Assembly (NCBI GenBank): GCA_016789445.1
Contig: JAEUQT010000001.1
Coordinates: 131,603-195,602 of the forward strand
Reading direction: 5' to 3'
Length of the DNA stretch: 64,000 nt
DNA from: a bacterium
GTDB taxonomy: Bacteria > Patescibacteriota > Minisyncoccia > Phycocordibacterales > UBA2100
The notes under the pieces are model-generated. The model did not search any database and had not been told where the DNA came from. It saw only the letters and a program-made list of their open reading frames with translations. The position numbers and the translations under genes were made by a program. Shown here piece by piece: positions 25,667 to 60,822 of the stretch. Position 1 is the stretch's first letter. Each line of letters starts with the position of its first letter.

Positions 25667-25670
25667 GTTT

Positions 25671-25899
25671 GAGTGACGGGACTCGGTCACAGATATTTCT
25701 TGCGCCGTCGGACAGATTTTTTCGCGACCATAGGCATCGTCTCGGCCAAGAGCTCATTCGTCGCCGTCGCTCCTCATTCCTCTCGGCCCTGATTTTGCGA
25801 CCCCGTCTGCTGACGGGTCCGCCGCAAAATCTTTCGAGTCCCGCCACTCTGCTGAAAAACGCAACAACCCCGACGGCATGCGTCGGGGTTGGCGTTTTG
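25671..25899 (-). repeat. tRNA-trailing element, subfamily 1, composite (after tRNA-Asp)
   Basis: The direct copy gagtgacgggactcg at 25671-25685 matches tRNA 25903-25917 and is followed by GTCACAGATA. The inverted copy is ttcgagtcccgccactc at ~25832-25848. A terminator hairpin CCCCGACG/CGTCGGGG with U-run (25855-25888) lies next to the tRNA. Confidence 0.8.
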
Positions 25900-26370: not shown

Positions 26371-26539
26371 TGTCGAGGGTGGGGGTCGGTCACGAATAAT
26401 TTCTGTCCCGTCGGACAGAAATTTTCGCGACCCCGGCTCGCGGTCTCGCCTGCTGGCGAGACATCGCTCCGCCTTTCGACCCCCACACGCTGTGTGCGCA
26501 GGCACACAGCCCTCGACACAAATCCACTTCGTATATTTG
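26371..26539 (-). repeat. tRNA-trailing element, subfamily 1 (after tRNA-Met)
   Basis: The 18-nt direct repeat tgtcgagggtgggggtcg occurs at 26371-26388 and 26540-26557. Core hairpins lie at 26388-26432 and 26443-26462. The inverted copy is cgacccccac (26477-26486) + hairpin + cctcgaca (26511-26518). Confidence 0.85.
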
Positions 26540-27143: not shown

Positions 27144-27165
27144 GGCGGTAGTATGCCATATGTAC

Positions 27166-27425
27166 GCAGGGCGGGCTTGGTCAAGAACATTTCTTGCTTC
27201 CGTCGAAGCAAGAAATTTCTCGGCCCTGATGTTGCGGGGGCGGGCTTGGTCACGGATAATCTTCGCGCCGTCGCGCGAAGATTTCCGCGACCCCGGCTCG
27301 CGGTTTCGCCCACTGGCGAAACATCGCTCCGCCTTGCAAGTCCAGCACGAAAAGCGCACCGGCGCTTTTCTCCCCGCGACTGCACAAACACAAAACCGCC
27401 CGTACGGCGGCTTTGTGTTTGCTTG
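27166..27425 (-). repeat. tRNA-trailing element, subfamily 1, tandem (one short plus one full copy; after initiator-like tRNA)
   Basis: The direct copy gttgcgggggcggg at 27231-27244 matches 27425-27438. A second degenerate copy gcagggcgggcttg lies at 27166-27179. The core hairpin P-a is at 27303-27322. The inverted copy is tgcaagtcc + hairpin + ccccgc, and a terminator hairpin lies at ~27391-27415. Confidence 0.85.
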
Positions 27426-34896: not shown

Positions 34897-35388
34897 CTAC
34901 GGCGTTACGCAGAAGCGCGCGGTCGCACCACTGTCAGAGCAGTCGATGCCGCCGATCGGATTGGTATCAACATCGCCCGCAGGAACGGCCGAAGATCCAC
35001 CTTCGATATCAGCACCAATGACATAGCCTGGGCACGCTGGAGACGTTGTCGTACATGCAGTCGTACCGTCTGCCGCGAGCGCTGCATAGCTGTACGGCGC
35101 GAGCGTCGTCGGATCAAGCGGAAGCGCCGAGATGTACTTGCTGGTGACGAGCACCGACGTGGTTGCTGAGGCAAACGCTTCGGTAGCCGTCGGGAAACGC
35201 TGGTTTGCATCGTAGTAAAGCTCAAGCGCCAACTGAAGCTGCTTGATGTCGGAGATACGGCGTGCATCGCGACCCTTCTTACGGGCGCTGTTGAGTGACG
35301 CCAGGACGACCGACGAGAGGATACCGATGATGGCGATCACCACGAGGAGCTCGATGAGGGTGAAGCCGCGCTGAGATCGATTAAACAT
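34897..35388 (-). CDS. type IV pilin (major-pilin-like), paralog A
   Basis: MFNRSQRGFTLIELLVVIAIIGILSSVVLASL. The C-terminal domain contains Cys pairs. Confidence 0.88.
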   Translation of the reverse strand: MFNRSQRGFTLIELLVVIAIIGILSSVVLASLNSARKKGRDARRISDIKQLQLALELYYDANQRFPTATEAFASATTSVLVTSKYISALPLDPTTLAPYSYAALAADGTTACTTTSPACPGYVIGADIEGGSSAVPAGDVDTNPIGGIDCSDSGATARFCVTP

Positions 35389-35425
35389 AGTTATGATTGC
35401 GTTAATCCGCTAATGAATAACAAAC

Positions 35426-35872
35426 TTACGGTTGCTGACAGTACATCGGATCGGTGCAGGTTACGCTACCCACCGTACCGTCGATGTCCTGACTGAGCGC
35501 TGCGTTCGCCGTATCCTCAAGCGTTGCGCCGAGGATGTAGCTCGCACAGACACCGCCGCTTTGCGTACATGCTGCACCCGCGCTCGTAAGGTTATCGAAC
35601 GAGTACGAGCCCGATTGAGGATCTGTCGGCACGACTGAGATGTATGTCGGCGCAAGCTGCGAGAGAGCATCCGGATACTCGCTCGAGTTATTGTCATAAA
35701 AGAGCTCGAGCGCCAACTGAAGCTGCTTGATGTCGGAGATACGGCGTGCATCGCGACCCTTCTTACGGGCGCTGTTGAGTGACGCCAGGACGACCGACGA
35801 GAGGATACCGATGATGGCGATCACCACGAGGAGCTCGATGAGGGTGAAGCCGCGTTCATTTCGTGAAAACAT
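35426..35872 (-). CDS. type IV pilin (major-pilin-like), paralog B
   Basis: MFSRNERGFTLIELLVVIAIIGILSSVVLASL. Residues 8-56 are identical to paralog A at the DNA level. Confidence 0.88.
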   Translation of the reverse strand: MFSRNERGFTLIELLVVIAIIGILSSVVLASLNSARKKGRDARRISDIKQLQLALELFYDNNSSEYPDALSQLAPTYISVVPTDPQSGSYSFDNLTSAGAACTQSGGVCASYILGATLEDTANAALSQDIDGTVGSVTCTDPMYCQQP

Positions 35873-35978
35873 AGAATTGTGAATAAACGGTTAAAATTTG
35901 ATCGCTATGCACGCTACGCGCGATGCAATCATCATACGGCACATCACACTCCCCTTGTCGAGTGGGTGTGTATAACCG

Positions 35979-44415: not shown

Positions 44416-44585
44416 TGCGGAGAGGGAGGGATTCGGTCACGGATAATTTTCTGCTGAAAATTTCCGCGACCCCGCCTCGTCGCCTACGCTCCTGCGACTT
44501 TCGAATCCCTCCGTTTCGCTATGCGAAACCGCCACCCTTTCGGGCGGCGCTCTCCGCAAAAAACTTGCGGGTCTCGTTTTTTTTG
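44416..44585 (-). repeat. tRNA-trailing element, subfamily 1 (after tRNA-Ser) - clearest exemplar
   Basis: The 20-nt direct repeat tgcggagagggagggattcg occurs at 44416-44435 and 44584-44603. The hairpin GGTCACGGATAATTTTC tgct GAAAATTTCCGCGACC lies at 44435-44471. The inverted copy is ttcgaatccctcc + two small hairpins + ctctccgc. Confidence 0.88.
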
Positions 44586-44674
44586 CGGAGAGGGAGGGAT
44601 TCGAACCCTCGAGACAGTTTGACCCGCCTAACACGTTAGCACCGTGCCGCCTTCGACCACTCGGCCACCTCTCC
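44586..44674 (-). tRNA. tRNA-Ser (anticodon GCU), long variable arm
   Basis: GGAGAGG TG GCC GAGTGGTCGAA GGC G GCACG GTGCTAA CGTGT + variable arm + GAGGG TTCGAAT CCCTC CCTCTCC G. Confidence 0.9.
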
Positions 44675-50625: not shown

Positions 50626-50979
50626 TTATGCGAAATACGCCATGATCGCATCGATGTCGGCCGCGATCGCCTTCTTGAGTTCCGCCTCGTCTTCAAATCG
50701 CTGGTCCTCGCGAATCTTCTTCTTCAATTCAATCGTCGCCTCGAGGCCATAGAGGTCATCTTCAAAATGCAGGAGATGCGCTTCAAGGAGCTTGCGGCGC
50801 GTGTCTGCATACGCAGCCGCGTGATACGGAGAACCTTTGATCGTCACGATGGCAGCATAGATTCCGGAAACCGTCTCGTCCTCGAGCGGGATATTCAGCG
50901 TCGGGAAACCGAGCGTCTTTCCGGTCCCATTGCCGTGCTGGATGATGCCTTTGAAGATCATGTGCACGCACTGTCTCAT
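50626..50979 (-). CDS. riboflavin kinase domain protein (monofunctional RibF C-terminal type)
   Basis: G.V..G.G.G..LGFPTLN and E.H....D.DLYG motifs. An alternative start is MIFKG at 50961. Confidence 0.8.
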   Translation of the reverse strand: MRQCVHMIFKGIIQHGNGTGKTLGFPTLNIPLEDETVSGIYAAIVTIKGSPYHAAAYADTRRKLLEAHLLHFEDDLYGLEATIELKKKIREDQRFEDEAELKKAIAADIDAIMAYFA

Positions 50980-50982
50980 GTC

Positions 50983-51148
50983 GTCACGGATAATTCAATG
51001 AGTGTCAATATCGAGTCCCCAGGGATAATTTTGTCGCCGTCGCTCCAAAATTTCCCCGGGCCTGGCTCGCGGTCGCGCGTACTCGCGCGACATCGCTCCG
51101 CCTCGGACCAGTAAACAAAAACAGCGCTCAATGCGCTGTTTTTGATTC
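50983..51148 (-). repeat. tRNA-trailing element, subfamily 1 (after tRNA-Ile), no distal direct repeat
   Basis: GTCACGGATAAT at 50983. There is an inner hairpin CCCAGGGATAATTTTG..CAAAATTTCCCCGGG, P-a GTCGCGCG tact CGCGCGAC (51072-51091), catcgctccgcc, and a short inverted match ggaccag. A bidirectional terminator ACAGCGC tcaat GCGCTGT lies at ~51121-51139. Confidence 0.8.
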
Positions 51149-51225
51149 TGGTCCGCCCTCTTGGATTCGAACCAAGGACCGCAAAGGTATAAGCTTTGTG
51201 CTCTAACCAACTGAGCTAAGGGCGG
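51149..51225 (-). tRNA. tRNA-Ile with genuine UAU anticodon, CCA encoded
   Basis: CCGCCCT TA GCTC AGTTGGTTA GAGC A CAAAG CTTATAC CTTTG CGGTC CTTGG TTCGAAT CCAAG AGGGCGG A CCA. Confidence 0.85.
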
Positions 51226-56346: not shown

Positions 56347-56730
56347 GGGGATGATTGGCTTCGACAGGGAGATCGATGCATATACATGCATGGCGGAAGT
56401 GGGTATCTTCCCAAAAACACCCAAACTCTAAGTGCAAACAAAACTGCACGGGGGGTTCTCTCGCCTATTCAGGTGAAGGACCTCGGCTTTGCTTTCGCGT
56501 AAGCCAAGGCAACCGTTCGTTCAGAGGTCTCCAATACTCTGATGCGAGCGTCATATCATTGGATACGGCTTCCCTATCACACCGTAGGTTAGTCTAAAGA
56601 AAGAGTGTCCGACGCGAAGCGATCTTGTGCGTTCCATACTCTCCGCGTTCAAAACCTTTGAACGCCCTACGCCTTGTAGATGTGTGTATGCGTTTCTCTT
56701 TGCACCGCGGTTCGATTCCGCGCATCTCCA
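56347..56730 (+). ncRNA. ssrA: tmRNA (SsrA)
   Basis: The 5' GGGGATGATTGGCTTCGACAGGGA pairs with the 3' ...GCGG TTCGATT CCGCG CATCTCC A (G3-U70). The tag frame 56434-56499 encodes ANKTARGVLSPIQVKDLGFAFA, then TAA. No encoded CCA. Confidence 0.93.
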
Positions 56731-56921
56731 CAGCCAATGCAAGCCGCCTTCCAGGCGGCTTTTGCATTTGCATTGCGACGGTGGAGATGAAGAAAGCGCC
56801 TGCGCGCTTTCTGCGGGGGTCTCGAAAGGCGGAGCGCTGTTCCGACAGCAGGCGGAACCGCGAGCCGGGGTCGCGGAAATTCAAAGGCGACGGCGTTTGA
56901 ATTATCTGTGACCGATTCCGC
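56731..56921 (+). repeat. trailing element, subfamily 1 (after tmRNA)
   Basis: Terminator AAGCCGCC ttcca GGCGGCTT TT (56741-56765). Inverted copy GGTGGAGATG + hairpin + GCGGGGGTCTCGAA. Core AGGCGGAGCGCTG, P-a 56839-56858, CCGCGAGCCGGGGTCGCGGAAAT...ATTATCTGTGAC (ends 56912). The direct copy cgattccgc at 56913-56921 matches 56713-56721. Confidence 0.85.
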
Positions 56922-56972
56922 CGCCGATATTCCTTCATGCAACCTTATGTGTTTTGATACGTCCACTGAGAT

Positions 56973-58298
56973 ATGCCGAAGCGATACTGGTGGAAGGATG
57001 CGAAGATATACGAGCTCTACGTCGATCGCTTCGCGGGGAATTTCCAGAACCTGACGGCACAATTGGATTACCTGGAGCGTCTTGGCATCAACGCACTCCA
57101 CATCCTCCCCCACTACCCGTCGCCCATGGCCGATGGCGGCTATGACGTGATGGAATATCTCAACGTCCGGCCGGAACTCGGCACGATCGAGGATTTCGAT
57201 ACCTTCCTCAAAGAAGCGCACCGCCGCGATATCAAAGTCATCATCGACTTCGTCCTCAATCACGTCTCAGAACATCATCCTTGGTTCTTGGAGGCGCGAT
57301 CATCGAAAGACAACAACAAGCGCGATTACTTTTTATGGAGCGAGAGCGGACACGAACTCGCCCTCGGTTGGAATGCCTTCCCCGACATCAAGCCTGGCAA
57401 TTGGATATTCAACGAAGAGACGCAGGACTACTACTATGCGACCTTCTATCCGCAGCAGCCGGATCTGAATTGGGACAATCCGGAAGTCTTCGCAAGCATG
57501 ATGCAGAACATGGATTTCTGGGCCGGCCGCGGCGTGGACGGCTTCCGCTTGGACGCAGCGGTGACGCTCATCAAACGAGACGGCACGCTCTCGAAAGGAT
57601 TGCCGGAAACGCACCAGCTCATCAAACGCATCCGCAAACACTTGGACACGAAATTCGGCGGCGAGATCGTCCTTCTTGCTGAAGCGCATCAGCACGTCAA
57701 AGAGATGAAGACGTATTTCGGGGACGGCGACGAATGCCATCTCGTGTACCATTTCTCACTCACCGAGCAGCTCTTCCTCGCTCTTATGCGCAATGATCGC
57801 ACCGAACTCGATGCGATGCTTGAGGAATCACGCGACATCCCGGAGAACTGCCAGTGGGCGATCTTTCTGCGCAATCACGACGAACTCTCGCTCGCGACAC
57901 TCGCCCCTGAAGTACGCACCGAGCTCATCACCTATCTTGATCCGAAGAGCGAATATCTTTTCAATGGCGGCGCAGCGACCGCCAAGAGGTTGGGCAGCAT
58001 GTTCGACGAAGCGAAGCTGCGCGAAGCGATTTCTCTCCTCTACTCGCTTCCGGGGGCGCCTATCATGTACTACGGCGACGAGATCGGCATGCAGAATCTT
58101 CCACGTACGGAAGGCGTGATCGACAGCCGCGTGTACGTCCGCGGTGAATTCGATTGGCTTGAGGCCGGGCTGCAGCGCAGTGATCCTGATTCCCTCTACA
58201 ACTTCACGAAGGGTGTCATCCGTAAATCACTCTGGCCATATAAGCGGGATTTCAATTCACCTCCCCCAGAAGAGGGATCGCCAAGCGACGACGAGTAG
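56973..58298 (+). CDS. GH13 alpha-amylase-family glycosidase (trehalose-synthase/amylosucrase-like N-terminal and catalytic domains)
   Basis: WWKDAKIYELYVDRF, GYDV.DY, DFVLNH, GFRLDA and the LLAE...NHD motif series. Confidence 0.85.
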   Translation: MPKRYWWKDAKIYELYVDRFAGNFQNLTAQLDYLERLGINALHILPHYPSPMADGGYDVMEYLNVRPELGTIEDFDTFLKEAHRRDIKVIIDFVLNHVSEHHPWFLEARSSKDNNKRDYFLWSESGHELALGWNAFPDIKPGNWIFNEETQDYYYATFYPQQPDLNWDNPEVFASMMQNMDFWAGRGVDGFRLDAAVTLIKRDGTLSKGLPETHQLIKRIRKHLDTKFGGEIVLLAEAHQHVKEMKTYFGDGDECHLVYHFSLTEQLFLALMRNDRTELDAMLEESRDIPENCQWAIFLRNHDELSLATLAPEVRTELITYLDPKSEYLFNGGAATAKRLGSMFDEAKLREAISLLYSLPGAPIMYYGDEIGMQNLPRTEGVIDSRVYVRGEFDWLEAGLQRSDPDSLYNFTKGVIRKSLWPYKRDFNSPPPEEGSPSDDE

Positions 58299-59556
58299 TC
58301 TCACCTTTGAAGAGTTGCCGCGTCCGCTCCGGCATGTCTCCTCGCTCGCCAAGATGCGCGCCGAATTTCATCGCCTGGAAACTCGAACCGAGGAAGACTG
58401 CGTGTTTACCGTATCGTTCCGATATCGCATCCACGCTCTCGAACACCATCTTCAATCCTTGGGATTCTTCCACTTTGCCGAAAAGATCGAGCTGAAGACT
58501 GTCCGCGGGGCGCAGCTGCGCGAGGGTCACGCCGCTCGCACGATACAGCTTCCCGTTCTCGAAAACCTGCGGGAAGAATTTAGCGACCTCGCGCAGGACA
58601 TCCTGCGGGACATTCGTGGGGTGCGGGAGCTTCACTTCGATACCGTGGTATCTGAAATCCTGTGTCTTGAGAAAGAAGAACACGCGATCACTCGCGAGAT
58701 TCCATCGGCGCGCCTTGATGCACGCATTCTCGACATTTTTGGAGAGCTGACTGAAGATAAACTTCGCATCGCGCAATGGTGGCGTGAAGGTCTTGGTCTT
58801 CTGGATGCTCTGGTAGCTGGTCTTCTTTTCCGTCGTGAGTGGATAGATGGCTTCGCCATTGAGCTCCCGCCAGATCTCCTGCACCGGCTTCGAAACTTTC
58901 GCACGCACCCATGGTTCGTTCTTGCGCGCAAAATCGAGCGCGCTCTGAATACCGAACTTATTGAGATACGCCGCAGTGTTTGGCCCGATCCCCCATACAT
59001 TCCCTACCGGCAGCTTTCCGAGAAATTTTGATGCGTCGCTGAGCGGTATCGAGGTGAGACCATCAGGCTTCTTCCATTTCGAACCGACCTTCGCCAGGAC
59101 TTTCGTCGCCGAGAGACCCACACTGAACGTGATGCCGAGCTTCACCTGCAGCTCCTGCTTAATGGAATGCGCCATGTCGTGGTAGTTCATCCGATTCACG
59201 CGGCGCATACCGGTGAGGTCCGCGAAGCATTCATCAATGGAATACTCCTCGACGGCAGGCGTGTAGCGACGCACGATCTCGTACATACGCTCTGAATATA
59301 GACTGTAGGTCTCGTAATCCGACGGCAGCACGATCGCATCTGGGCACGCTTCAAGAGCTTCGCTTAATTTGACCCCGCGCTTCACGCCGCGACGCTTCGC
59401 CTCGTAGGTGCACGCAGAGACGATGCCGCGCTCTTTGCCGGTGATGACCGGCTTACCGCGCAGCTTTGGATTCTTTGCCACTTCGACTGCAGCAAAGAAA
59501 GAGTCACCATCCACGTGCAGGATGGCTCTGGGATACGAGTATGACTTACCCCACAT
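58252..59556 (-). CDS. dinB: Y-family DNA polymerase IV
   Basis: ILHVDGDSFFAAVE, SIDECFADLTG and SVGLSATKVLAK motifs. It converges on and overlaps the GH13 gene by 47 nt. Confidence 0.93.
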   Translation of the reverse strand: MWGKSYSYPRAILHVDGDSFFAAVEVAKNPKLRGKPVITGKERGIVSACTYEAKRRGVKRGVKLSEALEACPDAIVLPSDYETYSLYSERMYEIVRRYTPAVEEYSIDECFADLTGMRRVNRMNYHDMAHSIKQELQVKLGITFSVGLSATKVLAKVGSKWKKPDGLTSIPLSDASKFLGKLPVGNVWGIGPNTAAYLNKFGIQSALDFARKNEPWVRAKVSKPVQEIWRELNGEAIYPLTTEKKTSYQSIQKTKTFTPPLRDAKFIFSQLSKNVENACIKARRWNLASDRVFFFLKTQDFRYHGIEVKLPHPTNVPQDVLREVAKFFPQVFENGKLYRASGVTLAQLRPADSLQLDLFGKVEESQGLKMVFESVDAISERYGKHAVFLGSSFQAMKFGAHLGERGDMPERTRQLFKGETTRRRLAIPLLGEVN

Positions 59557-59576
59557 AGGCCATGTACGTCCGGACT

Positions 59577-59635
59577 GTCACGGATAATTTTCTGCTGAAA
59601 ATTTCCGCAACCCCGCCTCGACACCTAAAGTGTCT
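59577..59635 (-). repeat. solo partial copy of the subfamily-1 core (no tRNA adjacent)
   Basis: GTCACGGATAATTTTCTGCTGAAAATTTCCGCAACCCCGCCTCG differs at one base over 44 nt from the Ser-linked copy at 44436-44479. It lies 20 nt upstream of the dinB start. Confidence 0.8.
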
Positions 59636-59682
59636 CCGGCCTTGCGAAGCTCCATGTATTCGCTTCTCACCCCAGACCATAG

Positions 59683-60187: not shown

Positions 60188-60760
60188 CTAATACTTCCGT
60201 ACGACGCCCGTGACTACTGCTTCGACTTTGAACGATTCTGTCGGATAAATGTTGCTGAACTTCTCATTCGCCGGCTCCAGATAATGATTCCCCTTCTTGT
60301 CCTGTCTCAGGTATTTCATGGTGTACTCGCCGTCGACCATCGCGATCACGATCTGCCCGACCTTGTACGTGTTGCGACGCTCGACGACTACCATGTCTCC
60401 CGGACGGATCCCCGCATCGATCATGGATTCGCCTTTTACTTTCAAGATGTAACTCGATTCCTTATTCGGCGTCAGGAACTCGTCGAAATCCATCGTATCG
60501 AGCAGCTCCTCCTCCGCTGCCGACGGAAAGCCCGCTTCGACTAAGCCAAGGAGAGGGACACCTCCTCCGAAATTTCCGGGAGAAAGACGGCCCTGTCGGT
60601 CTTTGACGACCACACCCTCGTCGACAAGTTTTTCGATGAGCTTGAACACAGCGTTCTTGGATCTAAAACCCGTGAAGACCATGATCTCCTTGTAGCCCGG
60701 GAAACGCCCATGCTTCTCATAAAACGCGACCAACTTCTGTTTATAGTGCTCATACGTCAT
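60188..60760 (-). CDS. lexA: LexA repressor (wHTH plus S24 peptidase)
   Basis: VEAGFPS, the cleavage region, KVKGESMIDAGI (Ser) and AMVDGEYTMKYL (Lys). ORF 60188..60808. The first ATG lies inside the operator, so the start is set at MTYEHYKQK. Confidence 0.88.
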   Translation of the reverse strand: MTYEHYKQKLVAFYEKHGRFPGYKEIMVFTGFRSKNAVFKLIEKLVDEGVVVKDRQGRLSPGNFGGGVPLLGLVEAGFPSAAEEELLDTMDFDEFLTPNKESSYILKVKGESMIDAGIRPGDMVVVERRNTYKVGQIVIAMVDGEYTMKYLRQDKKGNHYLEPANEKFSNIYPTESFKVEAVVTGVVRKY

Positions 60761-60793
60761 ACATGTTTTCCCTAGTAATTCCTTATGGAGTTC

Positions 60794-60822
60794 AGTGTAG
60801 TGAACCATGGTTCACCAGTCAA
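60794..60822 (-). promoter_or_regulatory. lexA promoter TTGACT-N17-TACACT with an embedded SOS (Cheo-type) box GTGAACCATGGTTCAC
   Basis: The -35 is at 60817-60822 and the -10 at 60794-60799. The perfect 16-bp palindrome at 60800-60815 contains GAAC-N4-GTTC. Confidence 0.75.

Follow-up and report, generated by a model that had tools for sequence, protein, structure and literature searches.

A folded 126-nt insert in front of dinB in a patescibacterial genome is an insertion polymorphism and belongs to a family of gene-end elements that may be mobile

The 126-nt spacer at positions 59557-59682 of a 64,000-nt stretch of patescibacterial DNA (contig JAEUQT010000001.1, assembly GCA_016789445.1; this whole stretch is called the window below) is a strongly folded insert that separates a PemK/MazF-like gene from dinB and belongs to a family of elements otherwise found mainly at tRNA genes. 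The descriptive points are well supported: the spacer is a member of this family, its site is an insertion polymorphism, its arms are derived from its own target (the start of dinB), and it does not come from the copy linked to a tRNA-Ser gene elsewhere in the window. As to mechanism, we infer a mobile element and put at slightly better than even the reading that it is non-autonomous mobile DNA whose fold is needed for propagation and which would be tolerated at dinB through an upstream open reading frame (ORF) that reads across it. Judged by its DinB homologues, which carry the name DNA polymerase IV in Kaiserbacteria and Paceibacterota, the organism is a member of the Patescibacteria (candidate phyla radiation, CPR), near Ca. 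Kaiserbacteria/Paceibacterota.

The interval is the exact gap between the stop codon of the PemK/MazF-like ORF and the dinB ATG. Its informative strand is minus, which is the sense direction for dinB and for the tRNAs bearing other copies. Read on that strand, the order is the pemK TAG, the dinucleotide CT, ATGGTCTGGGG (the left target repeat X1, within 59670-59682), a module consisting of TGAGAAG, a hairpin and CAAGG (59640-59669), the helices P2 and P3, the long hairpin P4, a tail and finally ATGTGGGG, with which dinB starts. The dinB start is present, as an imperfect direct repeat, on either side of the insert. X1 is identical to the sequence at which dinB really starts in L129 (ATGGTCTGGGGT), a relative whose site is empty, and closely resembles the start in another such relative, L213. 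A covariance model (CM) of 66 family members matches 59567-59652 on the minus strand with 57.4 bits (E = 5.6e-11 over the whole 64-kb window with filters off, E-values of this model being rough). The RNA fold predicted for the insert has a minimum free energy (MFE) of -54.6 kcal/mol (z = -4.9), and none of 200 shuffled sequences was equally stable.

An earlier reading of this DNA from the sequence alone (the sequence-only reading) had described the copy as standing by itself, with no tRNA beside it and no recognizable tRNA-derived arms. The tRNA annotation places no tRNA in the lexA-dinB unit, in agreement with the former statement, and the copy's repeats duplicate the dinB start, with no junction at T-loop position 56 of the kind described below. 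Arms do exist, however, built from the dinB start region instead of from a tRNA: the tail (X') repeats the left flank in inverted orientation, and the two pair with each other. The solo copy thereby shows a direct-inverted-direct triplication of the target in which one direct and the inverted copy close the core, in the order X1-core-X'-X2, whereas the tRNA-linked copies are ordered X1-terminator-X'-core-X2. In the MFE folds, X' pairs with X1 in the window and in the L001 lineage, which has an equivalent P1, and with X2 in L149. Pfam domains and coordinates likewise agree with the sequence-only reading that the copy lies in the dinB leader, inside a lexA - pemK-like - dinB string, with its hairpin ending 20 nt ahead of the dinB ATG.

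Orthologous sites were surveyed in a sample of 85 dinB loci, in which the relatives are metagenomic contigs. About 75 of the 85 have no element; these include the five closest lineages, with DinB identities of 93% (L213), 90% (L004-6), 88% (L214), 86% (L003) and 84% (L129), and about 70 more distant ones. At empty sites only 1-6 nt separate the upstream stop codon from the dinB ATG. The site is filled in L001/L002/L127/L128 (DinB 86%) and in L149 (DinB 69%), where lexA lies immediately upstream and pemK is missing. On this comparison of sequences, the dinB site is an insertion polymorphism. The sequence-only reading had proposed that presence at this position in distant relatives would indicate an old fixed leader. 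The element is indeed found at the same position in the distant L149, but it is missing in most relatives, the nearest included. An old dinB regulatory leader inherited vertically within the SOS operon would account for the shared position at 86% and 69% DinB identity and for the 5' module (TGGGGTGAGARGCGAATACNTGGAGCYTYGCAAGGCCGGAG) that the filled lineages (window, L001 and L149) have in common; given the empty relatives just listed, from 93% down to 84%, and an element family that sits mainly at tRNA genes, we consider it very improbable.

Each filled lineage carries its own dinB start on both flanks and, inverted, in the tail, with lineage-specific variants in codon 2. The left and right repeats are ATGGTCTGGGG and ATGTGGGG in the window, ATGACGTGGGG and ATGACTTGGGG in L001, and ATGGCATGGGG and ATGGCTTGGGG in L149. 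In the window, the left repeat is the ATGGTC allele, with which dinB itself begins in L129 (the start in L213, ATGGTG, is nearly identical), and the real dinB start is the ATGTGG allele, as in L004 and L214. A simple local duplication would not be expected to give such mixed alleles; they would fit an element that arrived with its own target copy, or the transfer of a filled allele.

The sequence-only reading had also noticed that 59577-59620 differs at a single base from the core of the Ser-linked copy (44436-44479). The quoted sequence and the mismatch are exact: there is one mismatch in 44 nt, which none of 100 dinucleotide shuffles reproduced, and the similarity extends to 51 nt at 94% (family D14). 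At 59609, the site of the mismatch, the minus strand has U.G in place of a C-G pair of the long hairpin, and because of this the pair survives on that strand only; P4 of the solo copy is intact, with one extra U.G pair. That the solo copy was recently transposed or gene-converted from the Ser-linked element, as had been suggested from this likeness, does not follow. The exact Ser 44-mer is unchanged in at least four unrelated CPR genomes (L017, L037, L052 and L108), at least 22 copies from other genomes lie within two mismatches of it and are as near to the solo copy as is the window's Ser copy, and the 35-nt hairpin is unchanged in at least 12 loci of other genomes. With four other genomes holding it and 22 foreign near-copies, the 44-mer is therefore the consensus of a short-hairpin variant. 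Compared from end to end, the solo copy shares 60% identity with the Ser copy, to which its 5' half cannot be aligned, and 71% with the dinB-linked copy of L149, although the DinB of that lineage is only 69% identical to that of the window. The 5' module is common to the dinB-linked copies of L001 and L149 and to 5S-adjacent copies of L027 and L104, and is absent from the Ser copy. By these alignments, the dinB-linked copy is a sub-lineage of its own, common to two other DinB lineages, and not derived from the Ser copy; such an origin, which the single mismatch and the 94% over 51 nt might favour, is hardly credible when the remainder of the copy resembles the dinB-linked copies of other lineages. 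The solo copy is, as far as these sequences tell, neither an old fixed leader nor a fresh Ser-element copy. The mobility that had been read from the near-identity gains nothing from it, the near-identity being no sign of recent copying, but the family as a whole does behave like mobile DNA.

The family core spans about 60-110 nt and comprises P2 (3 bp), the variable hairpin P3, the long P4 with a G.U pair and a bulged A, and a closing stem P1, of which the inverted target copy forms the other strand. A typical tRNA-linked unit begins with the tRNA and a terminator-like hairpin. Next come a 5' arm that can pair with the 3' part of the tRNA, AAAG, P2 around P3, GGG, P4 (GGUCGCGGAAAU...AUUAUCCGUGAC) and, without a spacer, a second 3' part of the tRNA. 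All copies make sense on the strand of their host gene, which in the window is the minus strand except for the tmRNA-linked copy. Structural alignment A1 of 66 cores, which is also the basis of the CM (R1), strongly supports this structure: the middle pair of P2 is CG in 33 copies, GC in 26, AU in 4 and UA in 3, and broken in none; columns 75 and 106, in P4, covary (GC 50, AU 13); and 99.4% of the cells pair across the 66 copies. The covariation score of 0.187, against 0.071 for shuffled alignments, was not reached by any of 500 shuffles, and slid controls collapse. The wobble pairs can form on the sense strand alone. The ends of the P4 stem read GUYGCGG and CCGUGAC; the pattern used for collection fixed the lower stem of P4, and the family sample is biased accordingly.

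There is also a divergent "type B" core, in which the changes to the lower stem of P4 compensate each other (GGCCGAGA/UUCUUGGCC); the Asp site has it, and a remnant of it is found at Met2. This core, AAAG-AUUUUGCGG..CCGCAAAAU-C-AGGGCCGAGA...UUCUUGGCC, is seen at 25668-25843 (-) of the window and at L207:7190-7330, and the type A model barely picks it up (16-24 bits). A hairpin 5' of the T-like arm frequently has the loop (A/C)CUGC(U/G) on variable stems (for example in L022, L043, L093, L114 and L120, and at 26480-26500 and 56785-56808 of the window), and sometimes also serves as the tRNA terminator. Kissing of this loop with the AGCA loops suits some copies by eye and not others, and the idea was dropped.

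A scan of 185,579 species genomes with the P4 pattern gave at least 120 loci, almost all of them in Patescibacteria among the matches listed. Likewise among the matches listed, a same-strand tRNA ends no more than 300 nt upstream in 75 of 122 cases, with 17 amino-acid identities represented, and in about 53 of 80 tRNA-linked copies the downstream repeat begins exactly at tRNA position 56 (between GGTT and CGA, at T-loop positions 55/56), which is 19-21 nt before the tRNA 3' end depending on whether CCA is counted. The far end of the repeat falls 0 to +15 nt past that of the tRNA; since the repeat contains trailer bases, the duplication must have occurred at the level of DNA. A second class of junction begins 3 nt ahead of the tRNA end. 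In most tRNA-linked copies, the last bases of the element (..GTGAC) are followed directly by the second tRNA copy; the direct repeats vary from about 6 to 34 nt, the arms differ at each site in that they copy the target, and the bases ahead of the junction vary by class (GGTT; GCGCG or GGGCG; TGCT or AGGA). Where the two target copies differ, the 5' arm is closer to the functional tRNA copy in 11 cases and to the downstream copy in 2, with 1 tie. This bias would be expected if the element provided the new end of the gene and evolved together with it, and equally so if the arm paired functionally with the tRNA.

Other hosts are tmRNA genes (56816-56922 (+) in the window, L008 and L020), the 3' end of rplL (L016, L047, L122 and L092), where the copy directly follows the stop codon (e.g., L122:3782-3870) and takes its arms from the last rplL codons, and 5S rRNA genes (L104:2235-2520 (-) and L027:4255-4340), where an antisense copy of the dinB-type sub-lineage (GGGTGAGAAGCGAAWAC...) lies downstream of an intact 5S gene. 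At the 5S sites, a 5'-truncated second 5S copy then follows, and in L104 a sense-strand core replaces its helix IV and loop D. At rplL, L047 has tandem units and L122 an L10 leader (RF00557) upstream. Copies at class II tRNAs share the junction GAGAAAG, not UCGAAAG (tRNA-Ser in L010, L019, L035, L038, L106 and L117; tRNA-Leu in L042, L079 and L113), which sets tandem G.A pairs opposite CGA; this sharing suggests the existence of tRNA-type-specific element lineages.

Within the window, elements are present at five of the eight tRNA genes, at the tmRNA gene and in the dinB leader (Table 1). Turnover at the Met and Asp sites was compared in genomes that share the GatA neighborhood, with 96-90% GatA identity. 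Among these, only the window has an element at the Met1 site. At Met2, a type A unit of the window precedes the 3' half of a type B unit and a second copy of the target. In L207 the same site holds type B together with one more remnant, in L209 a different variant, and in L210 only the tRNA and its terminator; the Asp site is filled in the window and in L211. In L211 (GatA 90%), an initiator-like tRNA-Met (L211:7070-7142) beside a 194-aa gene is inverted with respect to the window, L207 and L210, which points to a local rearrangement at an element-bearing tRNA site. The tmRNA site is filled in the window, L004 and L005 and empty in L001, L003 and L129, a pattern incongruent with that at dinB, and the arms of the tmRNA copy, which has a partial second T-loop region, are complementary to the acceptor and T strands of the tmRNA. 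Sites thus differ in being filled or empty among relatives with 84-96% protein identity. Older copies that have lost their 5' part lie downstream of intact ones at 27165-27235 (-) and 50975-51010 (-) of the window and at L207:7330-7370, each followed by another tRNA 3' part. To judge from their sequences, these nested remnants look like serial insertion at a regenerated tRNA end. Nesting with the newest copy beside the gene, together with presence or absence at strain level, is the product expected of serial site-specific integration.

Table 1. Positions of the dinB-linked insert, its parts, the neighboring genes and the other family copies in the window
Feature	Position	Strand	Remarks
Whole insert, 126 nt	59557-59682	-	between the pemK-like stop (TAG 59685-59683) and the dinB ATG (59556)
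X1, left target repeat CTATGGTCTGGGG	59670-59682	-	old dinB start in its native place, 2 nt past the pemK stop
5' module TGAGAAGCGAATACATGGAGCTTCGCAAGG	59640-59669	-	small hairpin 59646-59666 inside; shared with other dinB-linked copies
P2, 3-bp helix (GCC 59640-59638 : GGC 59617-59615) around P3	59615-59640	-	MFE fold, CM alignment
P3 hairpin GACACTTTAGGTGTC	59620-59634	-	enclosed by P2
P4, long hairpin GUUGCGGAAAUUUUC-AGCA-GAAAAUUAUCCGUGAC	59577-59611	-	conserved G.U pair and bulged A; the "core" or P-b hairpin of the sequence-only reading
Tail X' AGTCCGGACGTACATGGCCT	59557-59576	-	imperfect inverted target copy; pairs with X1 as stem P1
X2, right target repeat CTATGTGGGG	59549-59558	-	holds the functional dinB start codon (59556-59554)
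Upstream ORF, 44 codons (MVWGEKRIHGASQGRRHFRCRGGVAEIFSRKLSVTVRTYMAYVG)	59546-59680	-	opens at the old dinB ATG (59680-59678); TAA 59548-59546 within dinB codons 3-4
dinB, Y-family DNA polymerase IV	58252-59556	-	Pfam PF00817, PF11799, PF11798
PemK/MazF-like ORF, 161 aa	59683-60168	-	Pfam PF02452, E = 2e-9
lexA (S24 peptidase)	60188-60808	-	PF00717; upstream of the PemK/MazF-like ORF and dinB
Ser-linked copy	44426-44510	-	CM 74.3 bits; 3' of tRNA-Ser 44585-44674
Met2-linked copy	27239-27345	-	CM 103.7 bits; older remnant ~27165-27235
Met1-linked copy	26379-26485	-	CM 95.8 bits; site empty in L207, L210, L211
tmRNA-linked copy	56816-56922	+	CM 93.1 bits; 3' of tmRNA 56347-56731
Ile-linked copy, compensated P4 lower stem GCCCGGGG/CCCUGGGG	51008-51114	-	CM 73.4 bits; older remnant ...ATTATCCGTGAC downstream
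Asp-linked composite, divergent type B core and type A hairpin	25668-25843	-	CM 16 bits

Under the mobile-element reading, integration would proceed by structure- or homology-guided recombination, and the element would bring its own copy of the gene end that it interrupts, so that the tRNA, or here dinB, would remain intact. Only copies that keep the fold would propagate, in the manner of attC sites, and the compensatory changes would exist for this reason. As each element lineage would contain its own target twice, once direct and once inverted, the element would in effect be addressed to one gene end (T loop 55/56, tmRNA, 5S, rplL or the dinB start), and the dinB copy would indicate that this address can be rewritten to a protein-coding start. 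At dinB, the insertion would part the gene from its native initiation context. The old ATG would then open a 44-codon ORF across the whole element, ending 8-10 nt inside dinB, so that DinB would probably be synthesized through termination-reinitiation coupling. A read-through ORF from the left ATG is present in all three filled lineages (44 codons in the window, 70 in L001 and 39 in L149), ending from 2 nt before the dinB ATG to 10 nt inside dinB. Such coupled translation of DinB is plausible. The structure formed by P1 and P4 might act as a brake on DinB translation. A more specific version, which we regard as a tentative possibility, is a small (~100-250 bp), ORF-less mobile element of an undescribed kind, in which the three-way junction would be the recombination site (perhaps as single-stranded DNA), the target copies would be carried by the element itself, and dinB would be a rewritten address.

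Several observations weigh against a mobile element. Clustering of all ORFs lying up to 2.5 kb from the copies, at about 110 loci, revealed no recurrent protein family, and no recombinase or transposase is associated with the copies; no excised form, circle junction or set of identical recent copies was seen. Compensatory changes and the strong conservation of the junction and of the P4 lower stem across distant CPR classes would also be expected of an RNA that serves the host. The apparent invariance of the lower stem is partly a matter of ascertainment because the search pattern fixed it. The 5' arms keep their complementarity to the functional tRNA end at sites with a decayed downstream copy as well (the 11 versus 2 above), which could reflect functional RNA-RNA pairing. 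The three filled DinB lineages could equally represent one old insertion followed by repeat-mediated losses. Finally, the frame of the upstream ORF is also open in 40 of the 66 family cores, and 8-26% of shuffled sequences stay open; because of the former, its openness at dinB is weak evidence of selection.

The main alternative is a host-functional cis-acting RNA module that follows highly expressed genes (tRNA, tmRNA, 5S and rplL), where it might take part in the handling of read-through transcripts, in 3'-end processing or stability, or in protein binding. Since X' is able to pair with X1 or with X2, such a module could at dinB be a translational switch, which would work as follows: X':X1 would close P1, hide the upstream ATG and free the dinB start, and X':X2 would hide the dinB start. 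The covariation in P2, P3 and P4, the G.U pairs that work on one strand only, the 5' arms that follow the functional tRNA 3' end, the shared orientation with the host gene in nearly all tRNA cases, the alternative folds (X1:X' in the window and L001, X':X2 in L149) and the retention of lineage-specific variants in all three repeats all speak for a functional RNA. We nevertheless judge it rather unlikely: the element is dispensable, as close relatives are empty at the dinB, Met1, Met2 and tmRNA sites; most tRNA-linked copies sit past a strong terminator-like hairpin and would therefore be poorly transcribed; the 5S-adjacent dinB-type copies are antisense to the 5S gene; the nested dead remnants resemble serial insertion; and no Rfam family matches. 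The strong hairpin directly past a toxin-like gene could also be read as an intrinsic terminator or attenuator between pemK and dinB, or as a type III-like RNA antitoxin for the PemK/MazF-like toxin, both of which seem to us far-fetched. P4 is followed by AGUCCGGACG, with no U tract, and a terminator scan gives no minus-strand terminator in 59557-59682; as for an antitoxin, L149 has the element without pemK, whereas L004-6, L129, L213 and L214 have pemK without the element, and there is a single copy with no tandem repeats.

The family matches no described RNA family or repeat element that we found. In a search of the window with Rfam 15, tRNA and tmRNA are the sole families to reach the gathering threshold; with the cut-off relaxed to E ≤ 10, nothing but snoRNA/miRNA noise turns up in the element regions, and YrlA and tRNA-like families give only weak matches that overlap real tRNAs. 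Two patterns searched in viral contigs had no match, nor did BLAST searches of phage and plasmid collections. In the literature, no description of the element family was found; a paper on group I introns in patescibacterial tRNA genes (PMC13011429) concerns anticodon-loop introns unrelated to the element.

The closest resemblance in junctions is to elements that reportedly integrate in tRNA and tmRNA genes via tyrosine integrases at a T-loop sublocation. As in that case, the direct repeat runs from the T loop through the tRNA 3' end and slightly past it, the incoming DNA would supply the gene end so that the tRNA stays intact, tmRNA is also targeted, and repeated integration would give tandem or nested arrays beside a regenerated gene. 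Unlike those elements, the family has units of only ~100-250 bp with no integrase and no ORF, is not found on phages or plasmids, possesses a covarying folded core and an inverted target copy, and at dinB repeats a gene start. With integron attC sites and the attP(+) hairpin of CTX-phi, it shares a structure that is kept over the sequence of the upper stems, a bulged base that looks extrahelical and a variable terminal part, the direct-inverted-direct footprint and the position of the newest insertion beside the target. It differs from both in targeting tRNA T loops and other gene ends and in having a predicted three-way junction, not a simple hairpin. It further lacks the R''/R' cores (RYYYAAC / GTTRRRY), cassette ORFs, intI and attI of attC systems; no ORF was found inside the elements and no recurrent recombinase beside them.

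Short, non-coding, multi-copy sequences with hairpins, frequently co-transcribed with their neighbors and able to alter their expression, are also known as REP/BIME, ERIC, the Correia elements of Neisseria, pneumococcal BOX/RUP and miniature inverted-repeat transposable elements. The present family has neither fixed terminal inverted repeats nor a target duplication of fixed length; its arms are copied from each target, it has one exact tRNA junction, and its copies are divergent within a genome, with compensatory changes. As in tRNA-like RNAs (the tmRNA domain, YrlA and viral examples), the arms can form acceptor- and T-like helices with a genuine tRNA 3' strand, but the core stands in place of the T loop, there is no D- or anticodon-arm homology, and the dinB copy has no tRNA-like part at all. 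Two further groups of candidates were rejected: omega-RNAs of TnpB/IscB with a 3' guide, or ends of the IS200/IS605 type, as there is no constant motif resembling a target-adjacent motif (TAM) at the junction; and retrons, short interspersed elements (SINEs), split or permuted tRNAs and group I/II introns, as a reverse transcriptase is lacking, the T loop has been replaced and not interrupted, and the units are too small.

The genes around the insert show differences of their own. The identity of the PemK-like protein to that of the window is 43% (L001:4309-4740) or 29% (L003:4521-4994), compared with 81-92% for lexA and dinB, and L149 has no pemK-like gene between lexA and dinB; from these comparisons, the middle gene of the lexA-dinB string seems to have been exchanged among lineages. 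The lexA ORF as listed has 206 aa, and because the proteins of relatives measure 190 aa the true start is probably M17. A sigma-70-like promoter sequence, TTGACT-17-TACACT, lies at 60822-60794 (-), just upstream of that start. Elsewhere in the window, the tRNA-Ile gene at 51149-51225 (-) encodes a TAT anticodon (UAU) genomically; a UAU anticodon is uncommon in bacteria, in which AUA is usually decoded by a modified CAU tRNA. A 181-nt direct repeat with 93% identity (35210-35390 and 35694-35874, 484 nt apart; family D1) has no relation to the element.

The genomes of Patescibacteria are tiny and leave little space for non-coding DNA. If the family is mobile, it would be a compact system that aims at gene ends and repairs them on insertion with no known enzyme, and it would be of interest to the study of recombination and also for tracing genome flux between strains of the CPR. 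If its members are instead functional RNAs, they would be among the most widespread unannotated RNA motifs in the phylum. At the locus described here, a structured insert of 126 nt and an upstream ORF come between DinB, the SOS translesion polymerase, and its native start context. For this reason, the expression of DinB in this organism may, on the evidence of the sequence, differ from that in near-identical relatives without the insert.

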